Source: a virus
DNA: 64,000 nucleotides
IMG/VR virus record: IMGVR_UViG_3300024348_000008
Direction: 5' to 3' (one strand)
Positions 39,857 through 50,038 of this stretch are shown here, one piece after another (within the stretch, counting starts at the first letter, position 1; every line of letters starts with the position of its first letter). A program made the position numbers and the translations under genes. The notes beneath the pieces were generated by a model. That model made no database searches. It was not told the origin of the DNA and saw only the letters and a program-made list of their open reading frames with translations.

Positions 39857-41278
39857 ATGTTTGATTTTACTAATTACATAACAGAAGCCAAAGAAGATGG
39901 CCAAAAACTGTCAGTTATAATCTTAGCTAATTCTTTAGATGAAGGATCAGCAGCAAAGGTTATGGCTGATGTGTGTTCATTTAATGATATATCGTGCAAT
40001 TTGATTGATATCGATAAAGCATATTTAGGTGATGCAGATATTGAATTAAGAAAGGTTGATATACGTAATATTGACGGCGAAGGTAAAAAGCTTACTTGTA
40101 ATATAGATTCCACAATTGTATTTACAAGAGCCGGAGCAATTGCAACTCAAGTTGGTCAAGCCTTAATATCTACGCTTCAAACCGTTGGATTCTTTATGGT
40201 AAATGATCTTGAATCTATGATATTATGTGATAATAAAATGGCAACTACAATTGCTATGAATAGATCAAACGTAAAAACTCCACGAACAGTTATATTAAAT
40301 AATGAAGAAAGTATAGAATATGCACACAATCAAATTGGTAGTAAATTTCCGGTTATTGTAAAAACATTAACAGGAACACAAGGTATTGGTGTTACTAAAG
40401 TCGATTCAATGAGCTCATTAATTTCTGTATGTCAATCATTATGGAAATTTGAAGCACAATTATTAATGCAAGAATTTTTAAATATAGATTATGATATTAG
40501 AACTCTTGTAGTAGACGGAAAAATACTTGGATCGACAAAACGAATTACTGAAAAAGGTTCAGAGTTTAGGTCAAATATTCATCAAGGTGCAAATACTGTA
40601 CCATATGTTTTAAAAGATAAAGAAATAAAAACAATTACTGCTGCAGCAAGGGTAAGTAGCGGTTATTATGTAGGCGTTGATCATTGTATTATCGATGGTG
40701 AAATTTATATACTTGAAATTAATGGAAGCCCCGGAATCGGATCAAATTATAATGCATATGATTTAGTTACTCAAGAATCTTTAGGTAAAAAATCAGATAA
40801 TAAGGTTTTTGATCACTTTTTAAAATATATACTAGACGAAAATAATAGAACAAAATTCATGAGAATAGAATCTGGTTATATAGAAACTATTATTTTAGAA
40901 GGTTTGGAAAATGATCCAATAAGAGCTAAGCTTGATACTGGTAATGGAACAAGCGCATCGATGTTAATGGTTGATGATTTAAAAATAAAAGATAAAACGG
41001 TGTTTTGGAAAAAGAATGGTAAGAAATTTGAATCTAAACTTTTAGGTATATCAAGAGCTAAACATATGGAAACTGTTGATGAAAGACCTATCATTGAACA
41101 TAATATAATATTTAATAATAGACCTTATTTAATACATTTAGGGCTATCACTTAAAAACACGGCATCAGAAATGTTGTGTAATAGAGATTTAATAACACTT
41201 TTTGGTGTAGCAATAAATCCAATGAAAAGGTTTGCATTAACACCATACACGGCAAGAAATGACAAAAATGATCTTTAA
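39857..41278 (+). CDS. RimK-like ATP-grasp ligase fused to a retropepsin-like (RimB-type) protease
   Basis: GTQGIGV, QEF, DIR, FRSNIHQG, GVD, LEINGSPG; C-terminal AKLDTGN. Confidence 0.88.
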   Translation: MFDFTNYITEAKEDGQKLSVIILANSLDEGSAAKVMADVCSFNDISCNLIDIDKAYLGDADIELRKVDIRNIDGEGKKLTCNIDSTIVFTRAGAIATQVGQALISTLQTVGFFMVNDLESMILCDNKMATTIAMNRSNVKTPRTVILNNEESIEYAHNQIGSKFPVIVKTLTGTQGIGVTKVDSMSSLISVCQSLWKFEAQLLMQEFLNIDYDIRTLVVDGKILGSTKRITEKGSEFRSNIHQGANTVPYVLKDKEIKTITAAARVSSGYYVGVDHCIIDGEIYILEINGSPGIGSNYNAYDLVTQESLGKKSDNKVFDHFLKYILDENNRTKFMRIESGYIETIILEGLENDPIRAKLDTGNGTSASMLMVDDLKIKDKTVFWKKNGKKFESKLLGISRAKHMETVDERPIIEHNIIFNNRPYLIHLGLSLKNTASEMLCNRDLITLFGVAINPMKRFALTPYTARNDKNDL

Positions 41279-41408
41279 ATTGACTATGCCAAAAAAGCAT
41301 GAAATTAAGGTAAGGAAAATAATTCCTATATCTAGTCGTACTCGTGTGGAAAAAGATAAAACTAAAGCCATACCACGTCGTGCCAAATATAAAAATATAG
41401 AGGAATAG
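41268..41408 (+). CDS. Small basic peptide (46 aa, not in ORF track)
   Basis: MIFKLTMPKK...RTRVEKDKTKAIPRRAKYKNIEE fills the gap between genes. Confidence 0.5.
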   Translation: MIFKLTMPKKHEIKVRKIIPISSRTRVEKDKTKAIPRRAKYKNIEE

Positions 41409-41410
41409 AC

Positions 41411-41680
41411 ATGTCAGAAATAGACAATTTAGATTTTGATTTTGGATTTACAGCAGTCGATGAAAACGAACTAGAAGCAGTACAATCTATAAACAAAACG
41501 GCCACAACTGTTACAACAGAATTAGCTGCAGCTGAGGCCAAACTGGGCAAGTTATATAATGCAATATTACCATTGCTATCTAACTTAAAGAAAAATCCTG
41601 AAAAGGAGTATATTCTCTGGCCAAATCGTACAGAGAAGATAGAACAATTTGAAGATGTTATTGCTAACATTATAAAGTAA
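41411..41680 (+). CDS. Conserved T4-like hypothetical protein
   Basis: DFGFTAVDE, NPEKEYI.WPNR. Confidence 0.75.
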   Translation: MSEIDNLDFDFGFTAVDENELEAVQSINKTATTVTTELAAAEAKLGKLYNAILPLLSNLKKNPEKEYILWPNRTEKIEQFEDVIANIIK

Positions 41681-41691
41681 AGGACAAATAA

Positions 41692-42132
41692 ATGAATATT
41701 AATGAATTACGTGAAACGCTAAAAATAGATGAAGGGCAAATAAATGAAATCTATAACGATCATCTCGGCTATGCTACTTTTGGCATCGGTCATTTGGTTA
41801 TTGATGGTGATCAAGAAAAAGGTCAACCGGTGGGCACTGAAGTTACCGAAGAACGCGTTTATGAAGTTTTTGAGAAGGATGTACAAACGGTAATTGCCGA
41901 TTGTGAAAAACTACATGAAGGATGGGATACTTATCCTGAAGAAGTTCAACAAGTAATCGCAAACATGATGTTTAATATGGGTTATACTCGGCTTTCAAAA
42001 TTTAAAAAACACAATGCAGCGCTTCAATGCGGTGATTGGAAAACAGCAGCTATCGAAGGAAGAGATTCTAGATGGCATTTACAAGTTACAAATAGAGCAG
42101 AAAGGCTAATGTCTAGGCTTGAAAATGTATAA
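41692..42132 (+). CDS. T4-type lysozyme (GH24)
   Basis: DEG..Y.DHLGY.T.GIGHL, M.FNMG, SRW..Q...RA. Confidence 0.92.
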   Translation: MNINELRETLKIDEGQINEIYNDHLGYATFGIGHLVIDGDQEKGQPVGTEVTEERVYEVFEKDVQTVIADCEKLHEGWDTYPEEVQQVIANMMFNMGYTRLSKFKKHNAALQCGDWKTAAIEGRDSRWHLQVTNRAERLMSRLENV

Positions 42133-42135
42133 ATA
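42128..42135 (+). promoter_or_regulatory. Late promoter TATAAATA
   Basis: Exact match. Confidence 0.7.
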
Positions 42136-42156
42136 GTTATTTAAGAGGAAACTAAA

Positions 42157-42408
42157 ATGTCAGTAACAAGATTAAATGGTTCAGAAGGTAATTTAGCCTC
42201 TGCATCAAATGTGGGATTTGCTAAACTAGTAAGAGTATTAAACAATAAAACTACAGTCCAAGTGATTACTCAAAAAAACGCAGGTGGAACTACACTTGCA
42301 ACAGTAACTTTAGCAGCTGGTGAAGTTGTACATATAGCTAAAGACGGTACAGATACTTTAACAGGAGCTGCTACATCACTAGCTGTTTCTGTGTCATACG
42401 CTAACTAG
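42157..42408 (+). CDS. Small beta-rich late protein (possible virion protein)
   Basis: A/T/G/V-rich; late promoter; GAGG SD. Confidence 0.6.
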   Translation: MSVTRLNGSEGNLASASNVGFAKLVRVLNNKTTVQVITQKNAGGTTLATVTLAAGEVVHIAKDGTDTLTGAATSLAVSVSYAN

Positions 42409-42419
42409 TATGATTTATA

Positions 42420-42857
42420 ATGGCCTACTCGCAAAAAGTAATAGACAGATTTAATAATGTCTTAAATTCTCCGGAGAAATTCTCTGTAGGCCGATTTGAC
42501 CCTAAACAATCCAATGTAGCAACCGGAATGGCCGGTGCACCAGCGTGCGGAGATGTCATGCAGCTACAACTGAAATTGAATGACGACGATAAAATAGTCG
42601 ATGTTAAATTTAAAACATATGGATGTGGTTCAGCTATCGCATCTTCTTCATTATTTGTTGATATGCTTATGGGTAAAACCATAGAAGAAGCTAAACTTGT
42701 AAAAGACAAGGATATTGCAGAGCAATTAGAGCTACCATCTATCAAAATTCATTGTTCTGTATTAGCCGAAGATTCAATTCGAATGGCAATAGAAGATTGG
42801 GAAAATAAAAAAGCCCATCGCCAGCACAATGGAGAGTCTTATGATAGAATTAACTGA
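42420..42857 (+). CDS. iscU: Fe-S cluster scaffold IscU
   Basis: APACGDVM, GCGSAIASSS, KIHCSVLAED. Confidence 0.95.
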   Translation: MAYSQKVIDRFNNVLNSPEKFSVGRFDPKQSNVATGMAGAPACGDVMQLQLKLNDDDKIVDVKFKTYGCGSAIASSSLFVDMLMGKTIEEAKLVKDKDIAEQLELPSIKIHCSVLAEDSIRMAIEDWENKKAHRQHNGESYDRIN

Positions 42858-43158
42858 TAAAGCAATTGATCAATTTACTAAAAAGACCCAAGATCAAGGA
42901 AACGATACTATACGTATAGGATATTATTCTGCCGGTTGTAACGGTTTTAAATATATGCTTGATTATGCTGACACAGTTCATACTGATGATCATGTAATTG
43001 ATTATGGTAATTTTCTTATAGTAGTTGAAACTGGTCAATTACACAACTTTTCTGGATTAACCTTAGATTATGTTTCAGAAGGTCTTAATTCACAATTTGT
43101 ATTTCTAAACCCCAATGAATCCACGTCCTGTGGATGCGGAGAATCAGTCTCATTTTAA
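42841..43158 (+). CDS. iscA: A-type Fe-S carrier IscA/HesB
   Basis: GCNG, F.NPN..SCGCGES. Confidence 0.92.
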   Translation: MIELTDKAIDQFTKKTQDQGNDTIRIGYYSAGCNGFKYMLDYADTVHTDDHVIDYGNFLIVVETGQLHNFSGLTLDYVSEGLNSQFVFLNPNESTSCGCGESVSF

Positions 43159-43178: not shown

Positions 43179-43186
43179 TATAAATA
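43179..43186 (+). promoter_or_regulatory. Late promoter TATAAATA heading the curli-cyclase operon
   Basis: Exact match ending 6 nt before ATG 43192. Confidence 0.8.
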
Positions 43187-43191
43187 GTCCT

Positions 43192-43485
43192 ATGGAAATG
43201 TTTGAACTAATAATGGAGGTGGGTGCACCCGTAGCCGGATCCTTGGTTATGGGTTATTTCATCTTTTTAATTTTAAAGCAAATCTTAGGTGGTCTTGTTG
43301 ATTCAATTGCTACTCTAACTATGTTCTGTAAGAGCCTAGAAACAAGAGTAACTACTATGAATAATGAGATGATTAAGATAGACTTACTGGTGAGTAGTGC
43401 ATTAGACCTTACACCTCCTGTAGACAGAGTAGCAAGAGCGTCAAACTTTGTTGAGGATGGTAAAATAGATGCACGGAGGGATTAA
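43192..43485 (+). CDS. Membrane-anchored coiled-coil protein 1
   Basis: G.P....MGYFI TM followed by coil. Confidence 0.7.
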   Translation: MEMFELIMEVGAPVAGSLVMGYFIFLILKQILGGLVDSIATLTMFCKSLETRVTTMNNEMIKIDLLVSSALDLTPPVDRVARASNFVEDGKIDARRD

Positions 43486-43805
43486 TGGAAGAAATTGCTA
43501 TAAGTAATGATCCTACAATAGTCACTCTTATTAATGATTATGGATTTCCAATTGTTCTTGCAGTTGGAATGGGGTATTTTATATATTATGTATGGCAATT
43601 TATATCAAATGAATTAGAACCTCAAATAGAAAAGATGCATTTTCAATTAATTAGGTTAATTGATCAGGTCCGAATGCTTGATCAAGATATGATAAGATTA
43701 CAACAAAAAGTAAATGTTGTACTTGAATATAGAGAGAGACAACAATTCATCGAGGATCTCGAAGAAAAGAAAGCTCTTATGGAGAAGAAAGAAAATGAAG
43801 AATAG
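43485..43805 (+). CDS. Membrane-anchored coiled-coil protein 2 (paralog of previous)
   Basis: GFP....MGYFI TM followed by coil. Confidence 0.7.
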   Translation: MEEIAISNDPTIVTLINDYGFPIVLAVGMGYFIYYVWQFISNELEPQIEKMHFQLIRLIDQVRMLDQDMIRLQQKVNVVLEYRERQQFIEDLEEKKALMEKKENEE

Positions 43806-44337
43806 AATTTTAAATTATATTAATTGTACAATAGTAATATTGTTTTTTAGTACTGCAGTATTAGGAGACGAATTAGTACATAAATTTAAAAGTCCAAGTT
43901 TTAATGGAGTAGGTACATCATCTCATTATTTAACAATTGAAAATCAAGAGTTTTCACGAAGAGAAGCTATAGCAGATGATATAGAATCTGCATTAAAACA
44001 GGCACAACGTGATGAAGAAAATACTACTTTGGCCAAATTTATGCGTAATCTTGAAAGTAGAATATATGCACAATTGAGCAAACAATTAGTAGAAAAGCTT
44101 TTCGAAGCTTGTTCACCTGAAGCAGTAGCAGCAGGAACATGTACAGAAACCACATTTGGTAGTTTTGTATTAGAAGGAAATACAATTACATATCAAAAAA
44201 CAGTTTGTGATTCAACAATATGGGCTTGTACAACTGGAGATCAAGTTATTGTTATGACAATAGTAGCAGAAGATGGCACTGAAACAACAATTGTAATACC
44301 AATTGGCGCTGGAACTGCCGGATCTGGCGACGGTTAA
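43795..44337 (+). CDS. csgF: Curli assembly protein CsgF-like
   Basis: Signal peptide then ELVHKFKSPSFNG; F..NLESRIYAQLS; directly before csgG. Confidence 0.8.
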   Translation: MKNRILNYINCTIVILFFSTAVLGDELVHKFKSPSFNGVGTSSHYLTIENQEFSRREAIADDIESALKQAQRDEENTTLAKFMRNLESRIYAQLSKQLVEKLFEACSPEAVAAGTCTETTFGSFVLEGNTITYQKTVCDSTIWACTTGDQVIVMTIVAEDGTETTIVIPIGAGTAGSGDG

Positions 44338-45305
44338 TGAAGTACTTATTTGGTATATTATTAGTTGGATTATTATCTAGCTGTGCATCATTTGTTCCTT
44401 TTGAAGGATTAGATGCAACTGGGTGTGTGAAGGGGCTAGCATGTGTTGAAGAACCTGAAATAATCAGAATTCCTACACATGATGAATTATTTGGACTACC
44501 TCCATCAGATAAAATGCCAATTGTTGCGGTTTATAAATTTAAAGATTTAACAGGACAAAGGAAACAAAAAGGAGACGTTGCGATGTTCTCTACTGCTGTT
44601 TCTCAAGGTGCAGAAACAATGCTAATAGATGCATTAAAAACTGCAGCAGATGGTAAATGGTTTAGAGTTGTAGAAAGAGTCGGTATAGATTCATTGACTC
44701 GCGAACGACAAATAGTTCGTACAACAAGAGAACAATACGGTCAAAAAGATGACACAGGTTTAGCGCCTTTGCTTTTTGCCGGAATAATTCTTGAAGGAGG
44801 TGTCATAGGATTTGACACTAACATCGAGACAGGGGGAAGGGGTGCACGATATCTCGGAATTGGTATGTCACAAGCATACAGAAGAGATGTCGTAACCGTT
44901 TCCTTACGAGCAGTGAGTACAATGACAGGAGAAATTCTGTTAAATGTACAAGCATCAAAAACAATTCTCTCTATTGCGGATGGTTTTGATGTTTTTAAAT
45001 TCGTGGACATGTCAACCCAACTTGTAGAAATGGAAGATGGAATGACGGAAAACGAATCAGTGACACGGTCGCTTCGCTCTACAATTGAAGCAGCTGTGTT
45101 GGAATTAATATACCAAGGCCACGATAAGAAGTTTTGGGTAATAAAGGATGGGCATCGTCATCCCCACGGAGCACACGGGAGAAACGATAAACATTCAATA
45201 GTATCTGATGAAGAAACTGAAGAAATTATAACCATTCCAAATGATGGAGTTATAATAGATCCAATTCCTTTACCAGATGCATTAAAAGAGGAAATAAGGG
45301 GATGA
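44337..45305 (+). CDS. csgG: Curli secretion channel CsgG
   Basis: Lipobox LLSSC, AVY.F.D.TGQ.K, FSTAV.QGA, LTRERQI.R, D.VTV.LRAV...TGE.L. Confidence 0.93.
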   Translation: MKYLFGILLVGLLSSCASFVPFEGLDATGCVKGLACVEEPEIIRIPTHDELFGLPPSDKMPIVAVYKFKDLTGQRKQKGDVAMFSTAVSQGAETMLIDALKTAADGKWFRVVERVGIDSLTRERQIVRTTREQYGQKDDTGLAPLLFAGIILEGGVIGFDTNIETGGRGARYLGIGMSQAYRRDVVTVSLRAVSTMTGEILLNVQASKTILSIADGFDVFKFVDMSTQLVEMEDGMTENESVTRSLRSTIEAAVLELIYQGHDKKFWVIKDGHRHPHGAHGRNDKHSIVSDEETEEIITIPNDGVIIDPIPLPDALKEEIRG

Positions 45306-46036
45306 GAATAGTAAAAAATAAAACTTTAATACTAACAATGCTTTTATTGCTACCTACTACTGTGTTTGCTGGAGCTAACGATAATAAAATATTATTAGAC
45401 CAGGCAGGTGATACACTTAGATTATACATAGACCAAATTGGTTATGGTAATAAGATAGGTGGAACTATTGTCAGTGGAGATGCAGCAACTGATTGGACAT
45501 TGACTGGTAATACTGTTACTATGGATATTGACATGATCGGAAATCTTAACCAAATATTTGGACCTACATTATTTGATTCTACTGATGTTGATTTATCAAT
45601 AACAGGTAGTTCTAATATATGGGACTGGAACGTAGGTTATGGTGGAAGTGCTGATAGTTCAGTATTAGATGTAGCAATTGGTGGATCTTCAAACACTTTT
45701 GATATAGATTGGGGCTATGCGGCTTCAGCTGAAAGATTGGATTTTGATTTAGACATAACCGGTGGTTCAAACGTTTGGAATATTGATATTAATGCGGATG
45801 ATGTTACTTGGAATGTTGATGTTATAGGAAGTTCAAACAGCTTCTTGACAAATCAATTAGATGGTTCTGATCATTCATTAACGATGGAGTGGATAGGAAG
45901 TAATGGAGATATTGATATTCTTCAAAGTAGTGGAACTTGTGGTGGAAGCATCGCAAATTGTTTTGGAGTAATAAATGCAGACTTTGATTCAGAAAACGCA
46001 ATTGTTGACATTAAGCAAAAAGATACTGGCGACTAG
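45302..46036 (+). CDS. Secreted curlin-like beta-repeat protein 1
   Basis: Signal peptide; repeated DQ.G..N and I.GSSN units. Confidence 0.7.
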   Translation: MRIVKNKTLILTMLLLLPTTVFAGANDNKILLDQAGDTLRLYIDQIGYGNKIGGTIVSGDAATDWTLTGNTVTMDIDMIGNLNQIFGPTLFDSTDVDLSITGSSNIWDWNVGYGGSADSSVLDVAIGGSSNTFDIDWGYAASAERLDFDLDITGGSNVWNIDINADDVTWNVDVIGSSNSFLTNQLDGSDHSLTMEWIGSNGDIDILQSSGTCGGSIANCFGVINADFDSENAIVDIKQKDTGD

Positions 46037-47135
46037 TTTACTAGTTCCTACATTATTATTTGCTGATGATATTGGTGGTATAAGTGAACATAAGGGTAGT
46101 GGTGGAATAATACGCCAAAATGGCGATACCGTACTTACTGCCCTTGATGTTTCTATACAACCTATGGATCATGTAGAAACGGCTAATGGTCGATTAAAAA
46201 TCGATTTTTTGGATTCGTCTGAAGTTAGATTAACAGAAAATACTGAAATTACAGTATACGAATATTATTATAATAAGGCCAACAATGATGGTGGCCTTAA
46301 AATGAAAATGATTAGTGGAACAGCGCGTTTTACTACTGGACGTTTAGGTTTAATACCTAAAGAAAATATAGTAATTGATACTCCCACGGCCACTGTGCAA
46401 ATTCGCGGGACGGATTTTACTACATCTATAGATGAGTTAGGCAGAAGTTTAGTAATTTTATTGCCTGAATCAGAATGTACACTTGATGGTGATTGTTCAC
46501 CATCTGGTGAAATAAGAGTAATTAACCAAGGAGGAACAGTTACTTTAACTGAAGCATATCAGGCAACAATGGTGTCAAATTTAGATACAGCACCAGCAGA
46601 ACCGGTTATACTTGAAAATATAAATTTGAATATGATTGATAATATGTTTATTGTCAATCCGCCAGCTGAAATAAATGAACAAGCGGAAAATGCAAATTCA
46701 GGAAAAGGTGGAGATAGTAATTCTATTCTTGATTTTACTGAACTAGATACAGACTATTTGGCCGAAGACTATTTGGCCGAAGATGATCTTGAATATAATG
46801 AATTAGATATGGATCTATTAGATGTAGATTTCTTACAAGATGTTTTAGTTGCTATTGAAACAATAGATATATTAAAAAGGGGAACTAGATCTGCACAAGG
46901 AACATCAGAATTTACTGGAACAAAATTAGGATATGATAAAGAAACACAATATAGTTCTATTATTGATACTGGAATGGGACAACTTTGGTTCTATAGAGAG
47001 GTTAATGCAACGATCTCAGTTAGAGTACCTATAGGATCAAACACAACATTGGAGAGTGAGAATGAAGGGAAAAGGAATGTTATTACTGTTGGTGATGGCC
47101 AGTCTGTCGTTATCATCATTAAGCAGAGCGGATAA
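45975..47135 (+). CDS. Secreted FecR-domain protein
   Basis: D.V.T..G...I.F.D.S...L.EN and TPTATV.IRGTDF; signal peptide; acidic linker. Confidence 0.85.
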   Translation: MQTLIQKTQLLTLSKKILATSLLVPTLLFADDIGGISEHKGSGGIIRQNGDTVLTALDVSIQPMDHVETANGRLKIDFLDSSEVRLTENTEITVYEYYYNKANNDGGLKMKMISGTARFTTGRLGLIPKENIVIDTPTATVQIRGTDFTTSIDELGRSLVILLPESECTLDGDCSPSGEIRVINQGGTVTLTEAYQATMVSNLDTAPAEPVILENINLNMIDNMFIVNPPAEINEQAENANSGKGGDSNSILDFTELDTDYLAEDYLAEDDLEYNELDMDLLDVDFLQDVLVAIETIDILKRGTRSAQGTSEFTGTKLGYDKETQYSSIIDTGMGQLWFYREVNATISVRVPIGSNTTLESENEGKRNVITVGDGQSVVIIIKQSG

Positions 47136-47889
47136 TACTAATAGTATAATTATAGATCAAGTCACAGGTAGTAATAACCTAGATCTTACTATAGAACAAA
47201 TAGGATATAATAATAAGATATTCTTTTCTATAGGTGATATTGATGATACTGTTATTGATATGAAACAAGAAGGTAATAATAATGAAATAGGTTGGGCTAA
47301 TGATTCCCCAAGTTGGGGATCAGGTGCAGGTTGGGGTGGAGATATTGATTTTGATGATCATAATCTTAAGCTCTGGCAGAACTGTACTCAGACTACCTGT
47401 GCTAAAAATGATATTCAATTTCATATTTCATATGGAGATGATAATAAGGTTTGGTGGGCCCAAGGATATGAAATCTCTAGTAGAACAGATACTAGTTGGG
47501 CAAAAGATACTTATGAAGGTGGTGGGCATAAAGTAACTATTGATGTACATGGAACCAGAAATGAAATAGTTGGTCAACAAAGAAATTGCTCAAATAATAA
47601 TTGTGATGGCCACACAGCACAGATATATATTTACGGAGATGATAATTCTGTCTTCGGTAAACAAAAGGCCGATAGCTCTAAAACATTTAATTTACGTATT
47701 AATAATGATGATAATACAGTAGATTATTTACAAGATGGAAATGCATCACATGTTGCTAATATTATTTTAGATGGTGCTTATGGAACAGATTTAAATCTAA
47801 CACAACATGCAGGTTCTGCGCAGTCGTATAGTTTATCACAAAACTGTCAGACTTCTAGCGGATGTAATATTACAGTTGTACAAGAATAG
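47056..47889 (+). CDS. Secreted curlin-like beta-repeat protein 2
   Basis: Signal peptide; IEQIGYNN, KQEGNNN, YGDDN, LQDGN repeats; paired Cys. Confidence 0.7.
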   Translation: MRMKGKGMLLLLVMASLSLSSLSRADNTNSIIIDQVTGSNNLDLTIEQIGYNNKIFFSIGDIDDTVIDMKQEGNNNEIGWANDSPSWGSGAGWGGDIDFDDHNLKLWQNCTQTTCAKNDIQFHISYGDDNKVWWAQGYEISSRTDTSWAKDTYEGGGHKVTIDVHGTRNEIVGQQRNCSNNNCDGHTAQIYIYGDDNSVFGKQKADSSKTFNLRINNDDNTVDYLQDGNASHVANIILDGAYGTDLNLTQHAGSAQSYSLSQNCQTSSGCNITVVQE

Positions 47890-47892
47890 GAA

Positions 47893-48018
47893 ATGATAAT
47901 AACTATGTTAAATGAACTTTGGCAATTTTGTAAAGAACATCCTTTCTGGGCAGGGACTTTTTTCTTCCTTGGCTTTTGGATAGGGTCTGCTTTTAAATAT
48001 AACCTTGCTTTAATTTGA
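47893..48018 (+). CDS. Small membrane peptide (41 aa, not in ORF track)
   Basis: ...KEHPFWAGTFFFLGFWIG...; TGATG coupling to next ORF. Confidence 0.55.
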   Translation: MIITMLNELWQFCKEHPFWAGTFFFLGFWIGSAFKYNLALI

Positions 48019-48182
48019 TGTCAAATTGGATCTTTAATAAATTAGCACCGTATGCTATAAGGTTTAGAGAATGGTCTCAAGGAAAAACTTGGGTCCAAAT
48101 ACCTTTATGGCTTTTTATATTATGGATGCTAGGGTTTGCAAATCCTTATTGGTGTGTTTATCCTGTATGCTGGATTAATTAA
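48018..48182 (+). CDS. Small Trp-rich membrane peptide (54 aa, not in ORF track)
   Basis: ...WVQIPLWLFILWMLGFANPYWCVYPVCWIN; TAATG coupling to cyclase. Confidence 0.6.
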   Translation: MSNWIFNKLAPYAIRFREWSQGKTWVQIPLWLFILWMLGFANPYWCVYPVCWIN

Positions 48183-50038
48183 TGAAATACATTACTTCCA
48201 TTTGGATGTGTATAGGCATATTATTTTTAAGTTTGTTTCTTAAAGTATACAATGTTTCATATGTTGAACAAATTCAACTTATGGGATTTGATGCTAAAAT
48301 CAAATCTCTTCCACAACAAAAATCAAAAGACGTAGTTATATACGAAATTGGCGAAGGTACATTAAAACAGTGGGGTCAATTCCCATTACCTCGTCAATAC
48401 TATGCTCAAATCATATCAAATTTAATAGATGCAAATGCAGATATCAAGGCCTTTACGATTGTTTTTCCGGAGGCAGATAGGTTTGGTGGAGATCCAGCGT
48501 TTGAATCGTGGATAAAGGACTCTGGAGTGGTTCTATCACAAAAAGCCGATCCTCGAGGACGAGATGATGTAGCACCGTATGTTGGTACGGCAATGAAAGG
48601 AAGTGGAGATCCAATGGATTTTCTTCAAGAATATGATAAAATATTAACCAATATTCCTATTATAGAAAATTATGCATGGGGAGCAGGAGTTACAAATGTT
48701 GCACCAGAGGTTGATGGTCTTGTGCGTAAATTTCCATTGGTTATACAAGTAAATGAAAAAAGATACCCTTCATTATCAGTAGAGATTATACGAGCAGAAG
48801 AACAAACAAAGGGTTATACGATTAATACTGATCCGGATCTTGGTATAGTAGATTTGTTTATACCACCAAAATTACATTCTAAAACAAATTCAGACGGAAC
48901 CGGATATATTAATTTTTCAATAGAACACGACCGATATGAGGTTGGAGTGGATGTTCTCCCTGATTTAAGTGGGAAAACAGTTCTGATTGGTGTTTCGGCT
49001 CTTGGGATTGTGCCAGAGATTCTGACTCCGTTAGGGTTAAAATTTCCCCATGAGATTCAAGCATCGGCTCTCTCAACGATCCTTTCTGGGGATTCAATAA
49101 TCCGTCCTTATTGGGCTGATTTGGTGGAAATAGGTCTAATTCTAATTGGATCTCTTTTGATTCTTTCATCTGTTTATTATTTTCCTGCGATAATCGGATT
49201 AGGCGTCTTCGCCGTTGTTGGTTCTTCTGTGATTGGTTTCTCATCTTATAATTGGACAACTTCAATGTATCTCCTTGATTGGACATTTGCTATAGTATTA
49301 TATATAATACTTTTCGCGCATGCAAGTTTTAACAATTTTTGGATTCAATTTAAACTAAGACAACAAATTAAAGGTCAGTTCGGAACGTATCTATCACCTG
49401 ATATGGTGAATATATTGATTAAAGATCCAAGTTTAATGAAGCTTGGAGGTGATAGAAAAGAAATGACATTCTTATTTATGGATATATGTGGTTTTACGCC
49501 AATATCAGAACATTATAAGAATAACGATGATCCTGAAGGATTAGTAGAATTAGTCAATGAATTCCTTGATGCAATGACAAAAATCATTCTCAAAAATGGG
49601 GGAACAATTGACAAGTACATGGGGGACTGCATAATGGCATTTTGGAATGCACCTTTACCCTGTAAAAATCACGCTGAAATGGCAGTTAAATCAGCAATAG
49701 AAATAGAAGAAAAAACAAATGAACTCAAAATGGTCTACGAAAGACGAGGTCTTCCTGATATTAATGTTGGTACTGGCGTTAACACCGGGGATTGTATTGT
49801 TGGTAACATGGGTAGTGAATCCAGATTTGACTATTCGGTTATTGGAGATGCAGTCAACCTTGCAGCTCGATTGGAAGCTACGGCCGCTAGAAATGAGTAT
49901 ATAGATTATAAAACAATATATTCATCTTACACAATGAAGAAACTCCCGGAAGGGTATGTATCTCATGAGATTGGTAAGATTAAAGTAAAAGGCAAAGAAG
50001 AGCTAATTACAATATACTCCCCAACAGCTAAAAAATAA
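48182..50038 (+). CDS. CHASE2-domain class III adenylate cyclase
   Basis: GQFPLPR, DGLVR, VLIG.SA (CHASE2); three TMs; FMDICGFT, DKYMGD, FDYSVIGDAVNLAARLE (Lys/Asp ATP-specifying residues). Confidence 0.95.
   Translation: MKYITSIWMCIGILFLSLFLKVYNVSYVEQIQLMGFDAKIKSLPQQKSKDVVIYEIGEGTLKQWGQFPLPRQYYAQIISNLIDANADIKAFTIVFPEADRFGGDPAFESWIKDSGVVLSQKADPRGRDDVAPYVGTAMKGSGDPMDFLQEYDKILTNIPIIENYAWGAGVTNVAPEVDGLVRKFPLVIQVNEKRYPSLSVEIIRAEEQTKGYTINTDPDLGIVDLFIPPKLHSKTNSDGTGYINFSIEHDRYEVGVDVLPDLSGKTVLIGVSALGIVPEILTPLGLKFPHEIQASALSTILSGDSIIRPYWADLVEIGLILIGSLLILSSVYYFPAIIGLGVFAVVGSSVIGFSSYNWTTSMYLLDWTFAIVLYIILFAHASFNNFWIQFKLRQQIKGQFGTYLSPDMVNILIKDPSLMKLGGDRKEMTFLFMDICGFTPISEHYKNNDDPEGLVELVNEFLDAMTKIILKNGGTIDKYMGDCIMAFWNAPLPCKNHAEMAVKSAIEIEEKTNELKMVYERRGLPDINVGTGVNTGDCIVGNMGSESRFDYSVIGDAVNLAARLEATAARNEYIDYKTIYSSYTMKKLPEGYVSHEIGKIKVKGKEELITIYSPTAKK

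Follow-up and report, generated by a model that had tools for sequence, protein, structure and literature searches.

A marine phage copy of the viral curli secretion region, in which curli export genes are inherited with a FecR-fold protein and a predicted CHASE2 adenylate cyclase

The uncultured marine T4-like phage of IMG/VR record IMGVR_UViG_3300024348_000008 is represented here by a stretch of 64,000 nt (the window), and at positions 43179–50038 of the window lies a block of genes, referred to below as the cassette, in which a curli-type secretion system is joined to a FecR-fold protein and to an adenylate cyclase with a CHASE2 sensor domain. Ten open reading frames (ORFs) are found on the + strand, each overlapping or abutting the next (Table 1): an ORF check bore out the layout given in a preliminary description of this DNA. 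That description singled out the union of curli genes with FecR and a cyclase, which is not new, having been published in 2022 (PMC9599517).

The cassette is one more copy of an already known region, the viral type VIII secretion system (T8SS) of Wittmers et al. (PMC9599517), and it has the published gene order: one or two genes labelled 'histidine kinase' ('HK'), then CsgF, CsgG, CsgA/B and FecR, often followed by a second CsgA/B and an adenylate cyclase. The region was described from pelagiphage podo- and myoviruses, its bearers being HTVC023P-type podoviruses and pelagimyoviruses; trees point to alphaproteobacterial origins, its distribution is global, metatranscripts have been detected, and by the published estimate it accounts for ∼0.1% of assembled viral proteins (PMC9599517). 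The possibility that the link of cyclase and FecR to phage curli was unpublished (two curli-phage papers are silent on the cyclase) is ruled out by the same report. The CHASE2 domain is not named there and FecR is read as an iron regulator; in the literature library searched, no functional study of the region later than Wittmers 2022 was found.

Table 1. Features of the cassette (positions are those of the window).
Feature	Position	Strand	Basis or remark
T4-type late-promoter motif TATAAATA	43179..43186	+	exact match; ends 5 nt 5' of first ATG
TM1, 97-aa single-pass membrane protein, paralogue of TM2	43192..43485	+	phrog_18771, E 1.7e-22
TM2, 106-aa single-pass membrane protein, one long helix	43485..43805	+	phrog_18771, E 7.2e-28
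CsgF homologue, 180 aa from ATG 43795 (ORF opens 43714)	43795..44337	+	PF10614, E 1.8e-8; phrog_35372, E 1e-37
CsgG outer-membrane lipoprotein channel, 322 aa	44337..45305	+	PF03783, E 1.1e-48; lipobox LSSC
Curlin-like repeat protein 1, 244 aa, signal peptide, Q-x-G-x-x-N repeats	45302..46036	+	family profile
Secreted FecR-fold protein, 386 aa	45975..47135	+	PF04773, E 1.3e-11
Curlin-like repeat protein 2, 277 aa from GTG, signal peptide	47056..47889	+	same family as repeat protein 1
41-aa hydrophobic ORF, not conserved	47893..48018	+	no homologue in any fetched locus
55-aa hydrophobic ORF, sporadic	48015..48182	+	also in L003 and L008 (same position) and in L170 (between TM1 and TM2)
CHASE2 class III (IIIb-like) adenylate cyclase, 618 aa	48182..50038	+	PF05226, E 3.8e-31; PF00211 Guanylate_cyc, E 2.2e-19

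The components of a T8SS are recognisable one by one. The CsgF homologue exceeds the curated cut-off of PF10614 and has a signal peptide and an N-terminal FKSPSFNG motif; CsgG is a member of the CsgG lipoprotein family by both its Pfam match and its lipobox, and is 49% identical to the CsgG of a bacterial cassette (locus L084, discussed below). The two repeat proteins gave no direct Pfam match. Within the family to which they belong the Q-x-G-x-x-N pattern is nearly invariant, Curlin_rpt (PF07012) is matched by 26 of 98 members (alignment A5) with no other family recurring, and the family profile matches a solved curlin homologue (8C50, E 2.9e-9) and the E. coli CsgA fibril (8ENQ, E 4.2e-5). 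Through this profile the secreted curlin-repeat subunits of a T8SS are also accounted for and, so read, both repeat proteins are divergent curlins; Wittmers et al. likewise class them as CsgA/B-like (PMC9599517). Two curli-phage papers held that csgA and csgB are missing from these phages: the PF07012, 8C50 and 8ENQ matches rule this out, and the statements fail because the repeat proteins are divergent curlins. The first of the two is found in every cassette, bacterial ones included. The second is variable, being missing from a phage subgroup (L056–L074), in which FecR abuts the cyclase, and from the bacterial Henriciella cassette.

The FecR-fold protein comprises a signal peptide, an N-terminal beta domain resembling those of PupR and FecR, a disordered acidic linker rich in LD and a small C-terminal beta domain. 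It was modelled with 120 homologues (pLDDT, the model's confidence score, 78.6 overall and above 90 in both domains) and the fold was compared with known structures by Foldseek and then by Z-scored structure comparison. The N-terminal domain matches the cell-surface-signalling domain of PupR (6OVM; Z 15.3, root-mean-square deviation 2.5 Å, 135 residues aligned), the Bacteroidales anti-sigma factor BDI_1681 (Z 13.2) and the cell-surface anchoring domain of the adhesin MpIBP (5IX9; Z 11.2), after which the next match falls to Z 5.2. The matched domains of PupR, BDI_1681 and MpIBP are all periplasmic and dock to proteins of the outer membrane. The C-terminal domain gave weak Ig-like matches only (Z ∼3.5–3.7), which are uninformative.

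Both the periplasmic FecR domain and its fold are those of the Fec/Pup regulators, and the fold fits the role of periplasmic signalling component that the preliminary description had predicted for this protein. As modelled, however, it is not a Fec-type regulator, because it has no transmembrane (TM) anti-sigma part: the signal peptide, of the cleavable type, is followed directly by the FecR domain. Among the ORFs of the cassette there is no extracytoplasmic function (ECF) sigma factor and no TonB-dependent transducer. The linker between the two folded domains (∼46700–46900, mature residues ∼214–280) is predicted to be disordered, and its acidic composition, with motifs of the LD-x-DFL type, is conserved, which suggests a binding function.

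The last gene of the cassette encodes a cyclase with one TM segment, a periplasmic CHASE2 domain, a hydrophobic stretch of about three TM segments and a cytoplasmic catalytic domain (TM segments were counted by eye). The CHASE2 match spans residues 22–327, with hydrophobic segments, again as judged by eye, on either side. In 11 copies that are 44–60% identical overall, the metal ligands D434 and D482, the substrate residue K478, and S552, N559 and R563 are invariant; S552 aligns to the class IIIb Thr position of P. aeruginosa CyaB (3R5G), and N559 and R563 are the transition-state Asn and Arg, a set of residues that is class III and IIIb-like. The closest solved relatives are adenylate cyclases, CyaB (E 6e-33) among them. 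All catalytic residues being kept, as the preliminary description had noticed of the motifs, the enzyme is catalytically intact as far as sequence can tell and a predicted adenylate cyclase. It is 41% identical to the cyclase of HTVC008M and 32% identical to that of Melnitz. With signal peptides, read from the sequence, at the start of CsgF, of both repeat proteins and of the FecR-fold protein, all core cassette proteins are predicted to be exported or membrane-bound. All conserved cassette genes fall in PHROGs families of unknown function.

The two genes that open the cassette encode paralogous proteins (both phrog_18771), and TM1 is, by position, the 'HK' of Wittmers 2022. A histidine kinase should show a HisKA/DHp hairpin, a conserved phospho-accepting His and HATPase_c; none of these was found in TM1 or TM2. 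Neither protein matches Pfam, HATPase_c and HisKA included, at E up to 0.1; family members are short (median 95 aa), and in none of the columns of their alignment does His exceed 35%; and the AlphaFold model of TM2 is a single helix (residues 10–105, pLDDT 87.7). Because of this small size (∼95 aa), the lack of a Pfam match and of a conserved His, and the single-helix model, the 'histidine kinase' label of PMC9599517 is unsupported and probably wrong. Lys and Arg are richer on the C-terminal side in 83% of 247 family members; TM2 is probably N-out/C-in, and the positive-inside rule suggests that its helix is cytoplasmic. The leads that TM2 gave to holins are weak (phrog_4898, E 0.006; a Holin_BhlA-type cluster, score 0.84), both being below a reliable threshold, and its matches in the ESM Atlas are to viral hypothetical clusters only. 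Among 50,697 GenBank phage records TM2 is found only in HTVC008M and the Melnitz phages.

Is the cassette a unit of inheritance? A search of IMG/VR seeded with the cyclase returned at least 599 contigs, of which 80 were kept for analysis of gene order. Every kept contig with enough upstream DNA has the order TM1-TM2-CsgF-CsgG-curlin-FecR-(curlin)-cyclase, with one subgroup lacking the second curlin, and TM1 is found in all cassette-bearing phage loci with enough upstream DNA. A search in the opposite direction, seeded with CsgG, found the cyclase in 60 of 79 further viral loci, and of the loci that leave more than 5.5 kb of room for it, just two show no cyclase in the DNA examined. Where cassettes are rearranged their parts stay linked, for example with TM1/TM2 after the cyclase on the opposite strand, and TM1 itself is still linked in the rearranged cassettes L176, L177 and L283. 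Co-inheritance thus holds in both directions over ∼130 viral contigs: the eight core genes (TM1, TM2, CsgF, CsgG, curlin 1, the FecR-fold protein, usually curlin 2, and the CHASE2 cyclase) are inherited together. The preliminary description had called for such a survey and was prepared to give way if the cyclase were not conserved with csg and fecR genes; the cyclase is in fact co-conserved with csgF, csgG and fecR, whichever end the search starts from. CsgG occurs, among the same GenBank phage records, only in HTVC008M, in the Melnitz phages and in one unannotated 1.5-kb Salmonella phage record.

Insertions are seen in a few viral loci. In L300, L304, L305, L306 and L344 (three of them on contigs of 217–340 kb) ∼4 kb is inserted between curlin 2 and the cyclase; the L300 insert holds a ferredoxin-reductase-like FAD/NAD-binding gene, and the inserts also hold several ORFs of 400–500 aa that have no Pfam match. 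Ten ORFs inserted before the cyclase in loci other than that of the window were scanned and no phosphodiesterase was found among them. Full phage cassettes were also met in supposed bacterial genomes: L163–L178 lie on contigs (some of 121–142 kb) in metagenome-assembled genomes (MAGs) labelled Sphingobacteriales, Saprospirales, Synechococcus, Planctomycetaceae, Pelagibacter, Legionellales and others. These look like mis-binned phage DNA, from which wrong hosts or taxa could be assigned. Close bacterial relatives of the FecR-fold protein were set aside on similar grounds: 16 of 19 'genome' matches carry the cassette, mostly on phage-like contigs binned into MAGs of many phyla.

The two small hydrophobic ORFs that precede the cyclase in the window are another matter. 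A small hydrophobic ORF of any kind abuts the cyclase start in 13 of 139 loci, and such ORFs are mutually unrelated; the 55-aa ORF is 75% identical to one at L170:6410-6574 and appears to be a small ORF that is mobile within the cassette. The parts list of the preliminary description is in this respect too long: TM1, TM2, CsgF, CsgG, the curlins, the FecR-like protein and the cyclase all stand, and the two TM peptides are not conserved parts.

Five nucleotides before the first gene lies the motif TATAAATA, placed as expected of a T4-type late transcription unit. It is the single copy between 42136 and 56688. The window as a whole contains 22 copies, against 17 ± 4 expected, which is not above chance, and because of this its presence in the window is by itself weak evidence. 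Its recurrence is good evidence: in 36 of 47 related phage loci with diverged flanks the motif lies no more than 60 nt 5' of the first cassette gene, from which a T4-type late promoter upstream of the cassette is predicted. No terminator-like site was found on the + strand directly 3' of the cyclase. The preliminary description had seen a single copy of the motif followed by joined ORFs, and one conserved late-promoter motif with overlapping junctions, the cyclase included, is what we see as well: the cassette is a single inherited late unit and is probably co-transcribed. The stretch directly 5' of it (39857–43158) encodes a RimK-like ATP-grasp protein (39857–41278), a T4-type lysozyme ∼1 kb away (41692–42132) and, closest to the cassette, two Fe-S cluster assembly genes, one NifU-like (42420–42857) and one IscA/HesB-like (42829–43158).

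The cassette is not confined to phages. The genes for CsgF, CsgG, curlin, FecR and the CHASE2 cyclase occur together in three bacterial genomes, the Caulobacteraceae MAGs CANGEH01 and CANGCO01 and the Henriciella MAG CBFICP01, the Henriciella copy being on a 397-kb contig with ordinary metabolic genes on either side. This contradicts the statement in PMC9599517 that these genes are not found in bacterial T8SS operons. The joined form is rare: a full-length FecR-like protein is present in one of 301 genomes of the order that contains the Caulobacteraceae and Henriciella cassettes, and in ∼65 other bacterial CsgG loci, mostly alphaproteobacterial, there is no FecR or cyclase within 8 kb. A tree of 78 cyclases unites all cassette copies, those of phages and those of bacteria, in a single clade (SH-aLRT support 100) to which none of the 39 other bacterial CHASE2 cyclases belongs. 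The proteins of the bacterial cassettes group with the phage set L283–L287 (support 81–98) whether the tree is that of the cyclases or that of CsgG, from which it follows that the cassette moved as a unit. A test of whether all cassette CsgGs form one clade nominally rejected this (approximately unbiased p-value, p-AU, 0.0135) but is uninformative, because its 'no cassette' group included short contigs that end before the FecR and cyclase positions. In one Caulobacteraceae MAG a PycTM gene (Pycsar effector family, PF18967, E 8.8e-25; L084:11491-12081) lies 440 bp 3' of the cassette cyclase.

The pairing of FecR with a CHASE2 cyclase, on which the preliminary description relied, recurs in bacteria that lack the rest. 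A FecR-domain protein adjoins a CHASE2 cyclase in Thalassospira (tetratricopeptide repeat (TPR) protein-FecR-cyclase, L092) and in other alphaproteobacteria; the Campylobacterota have a FecR/CHASE2 cyclase cluster in which a phosphodiesterase and a TPR protein are encoded as well (PMC9239204); and in Sinorhizobium meliloti the FecR-domain protein SMc02177 (smc02177) is a target of Clr, its expression depending on cyaD1/D2/K (PMC5498481). Around the closest non-cassette bacterial CHASE2 cyclases (L086–L162, e.g., L094:6520-8682) the neighbours are heterogeneous, with FecR in 5 of 64. A divergent ABC exporter adjoins 19 of the 64, HlyD or OEP genes occur in some, and at L143:3694-8892 a 1733-aa protein with BapA_N, FecR and RTX repeats is encoded directly 5' of the cyclase. 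This looks like a recurring bacterial trio of secretion system, FecR-domain protein and CHASE2 cyclase.

What might the cassette do? We hold, with confidence evenly poised between belief and doubt, that it is the published viral T8SS unit and that curli export is coupled in it to cyclic AMP (cAMP) sensing by the FecR-fold protein and the CHASE2 cyclase. Late in infection the lipoprotein CsgG, together with CsgF, would provide the host with an outer-membrane channel, of which it has none itself; through this channel the curlin-like proteins would be exported to form a surface fibre or cap; and the periplasmic FecR-fold protein and the periplasmic CHASE2 domain of the cyclase would act as a sensor pair, as in the bacterial FecR–CHASE2 clusters, so that the condition of the envelope or secretion channel is turned into cytoplasmic cAMP. 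TM1 and TM2, phage-specific coiled-coil proteins, are the only cassette-linked candidates for the output, which is speculation. The preliminary description had proposed a trans-envelope cAMP pathway: its sensor half is plausible, given the FecR fold, the CHASE2 pairing and the co-conservation; for its output half no reader was found in the phage records searched or in most of the Pelagibacteraceae genomes.

Several points weigh against this coupling. No cNMP-binding domain (PF00027; cNMP, cyclic nucleotide monophosphate) was found in five phage records, namely HTVC008M, Melnitz and three related contigs of 126–139 kb. The Pelagibacteraceae were searched as the likely host group, and such a domain was found in only 3 of 81 genomes (many incomplete); a class III cyclase domain, too, turned up in only 3 of these 81, and in at least two of the three it belongs to a phage contig mis-binned into the MAG. 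With both kinds of domain so rare, a cAMP signal in the Pelagibacteraceae would have no known reader, and output through CRP-like regulators, as the preliminary description would have it, gains nothing from these searches. In some myovirus loci curlin 2 and the cyclase are separated by an insert of up to 4 kb, and coupling may therefore be loose. Podovirus versions often lack both the cyclase and the second curlin (PMC9599517). Linked receptors do exist elsewhere: in two SAR86 loci (L156, single-cell; L129, MAG) a cNMP-binding protein is encoded 1–2 kb 3' of the CHASE2 cyclase.

The podovirus versions and the inserted genes, together with the dispensability of curlin 2 in a myovirus subgroup and the existence of bacterial FecR–CHASE2 pairs without CsgG, are also what would be expected of two independent modules that happen to lie side by side: a curli fibre, serving in aggregation, 'sibling capture' or phage exclusion, and a FecR/CHASE2 cyclase that alters or poisons host physiology. 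We consider this unlikely, though deserving of attention. The order of the genes (curlin-FecR-curlin-cyclase) is interleaved, which is more than adjacency; the cassette cyclases are one clade, and three bacteria have the joined form with CsgG and cyclase both grouping with L283–L287; and loci that have room for a cyclase and lack it number only two among the 79 seeded with CsgG. It is for the interleaved order, the single clade and the bacterial cassettes that one coupled system is favoured over two modules. A somewhat less likely alternative is that of Wittmers 2022, in which cyclase, FecR and 'histidine kinase' switch the phage T8SS on, much as cAMP and CsgD control curli in Gammaproteobacteria and FecR senses iron. 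The genes are indeed co-located and co-inherited, and the curli of E. coli are known to be under cAMP control (cited in PMC9599517), but the single late-promoter motif implies that all the proteins are made together, with none controlling transcription of the others. Moreover, no CsgD and no cNMP-binding protein were seen in the cassette or the phages, the 'HK' proteins are the ∼95-aa single helices described above, with neither HATPase_c/HisKA match nor conserved His, and the FecR-like protein, with a signal peptide only, comes without anti-sigma domain, sigma factor or TonB-dependent transducer in the cassette.

The preliminary description also suggested a role in lysis timing or in the sensing of superinfection, and we found nothing linking the block to either. 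A related proposal (Buchholz 2022) sees in CsgG/CsgF a gated pore, a pinholin or secretin that times lysis, to which TM1/TM2 might be added as holin-like proteins and cAMP as a timer. A lysozyme gene 1 kb upstream, late expression as predicted from the promoter motif, and the fact that the weak leads of TM2 go to holin families only would all suit such a device. We nevertheless judge it improbable: the proposal assumed that there were no curlin genes and there are two, none of the holin leads reaches a threshold that could be relied on, the bacterial cassettes hold pore, curlin, FecR and cyclase with neither TM1/TM2 nor lysis genes, and the curli-phage literature links no clumping or lysis phenotype to these genes. 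Most improbable of all is that the cyclase does not signal through cAMP, making another nucleotide or draining ATP, for example against a cyclic-nucleotide defence of the host. The failure to find a cAMP receptor in the five phage records and in all but 3 of 81 Pelagibacteraceae would be explained, and the PycTM gene that follows the cyclase in one bacterial cassette is of the Pycsar type; yet both the specificity pair (Lys and Ser/Thr) and the best matches point to a class IIIb adenylate cyclase, and PycTM was found neither in the five phage records, at E up to 1, nor in the Henriciella cassette. A Pycsar cyclase–effector pair is therefore not what the phage cassette contains: PycTM adjoins the cyclase in the Caulobacteraceae MAG only.

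Coupled export and sensing can be given a more specific form, one that we put forward as a distinctly doubtful conjecture. The FecR-fold protein would dock under CsgG, in the manner of PupR or of an adhesin retention domain, and would report the load of secretion or fibre to the CHASE2 cyclase, the resulting cAMP being read by TM1/TM2 rather than by a CRP-type regulator and setting a late decision such as lysis timing or phage exclusion. If this were true, the virus would bring a complete and self-contained second-messenger circuit into a host group in which hardly any genes for cAMP signalling were found.

Few auxiliary gene blocks of marine phages are as widespread as this cassette (∼0.1% of assembled viral proteins by the published estimate, PMC9599517; at least 599 cyclase contigs in IMG/VR), and from it abundant ocean bacteria gain two things that are otherwise missing from them, a secretion system of the outer membrane and a cyclase. 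To the published account the present analysis adds the sensor as a CHASE2 cyclase paired with a FecR-fold protein, the joined cassette in a few bacteria, the doubt over the 'histidine kinase' label, and a likely host group that is mostly without a recognisable cAMP reader. Because of the last of these the output of the cyclase is the real question. What remains of interest is this missing reader and also the bacterial counterparts, rare as they are, which could open the function to experimental test.

Compared with known systems, the cassette is closest to the viral T8SS of HTVC008M (KC465899, 7181–13807) and Melnitz (MZ577097, 50118–56876), which have the same genes in the same order; the window adds the two nonconserved small ORFs before the cyclase and differs in nothing essential. 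The bacterial cassettes share the five-gene core and its order, and cluster with phage versions in the cyclase and CsgG trees, but they have no TM1/TM2, a GC content of 51–58% (32–37% in the window) and chromosomal housekeeping genes as flanks. The bacterial FecR/CHASE2 clusters resemble the phage cassette in having the gene for a secreted FecR-domain protein beside that for a CHASE2 class III cyclase; they differ in having no CsgG, CsgF or curlin, and the phosphodiesterase and TPR protein of the Campylobacterota and the reader Clr of S. meliloti were not seen in the phage. With E. coli curli (csgBAC-csgDEFG) the cassette shares the CsgG lipoprotein channel, CsgF and subunits with Q-x-G-x-x-N curlin repeats; unlike it, the phage cassette has no CsgE, CsgC or CsgD that we could see, and it is encoded by a lytic phage of a host group reported to be without T8SS (PMC9599517). 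The Fec/Pup systems (FecA-FecR-FecI; PupB-PupR-PupI) have in common with the cassette the fold of the periplasmic domain (Z 15.3 to the C-terminal cell-surface-signalling domain of PupR), and lack a counterpart here for the TM anti-sigma part, the ECF sigma factor and the TonB-dependent transducer. By analogy the logic would nonetheless be alike, running from an outer-membrane protein through a periplasmic domain to a cytoplasmic output, which in the phage would be a cyclase in place of a sigma factor.

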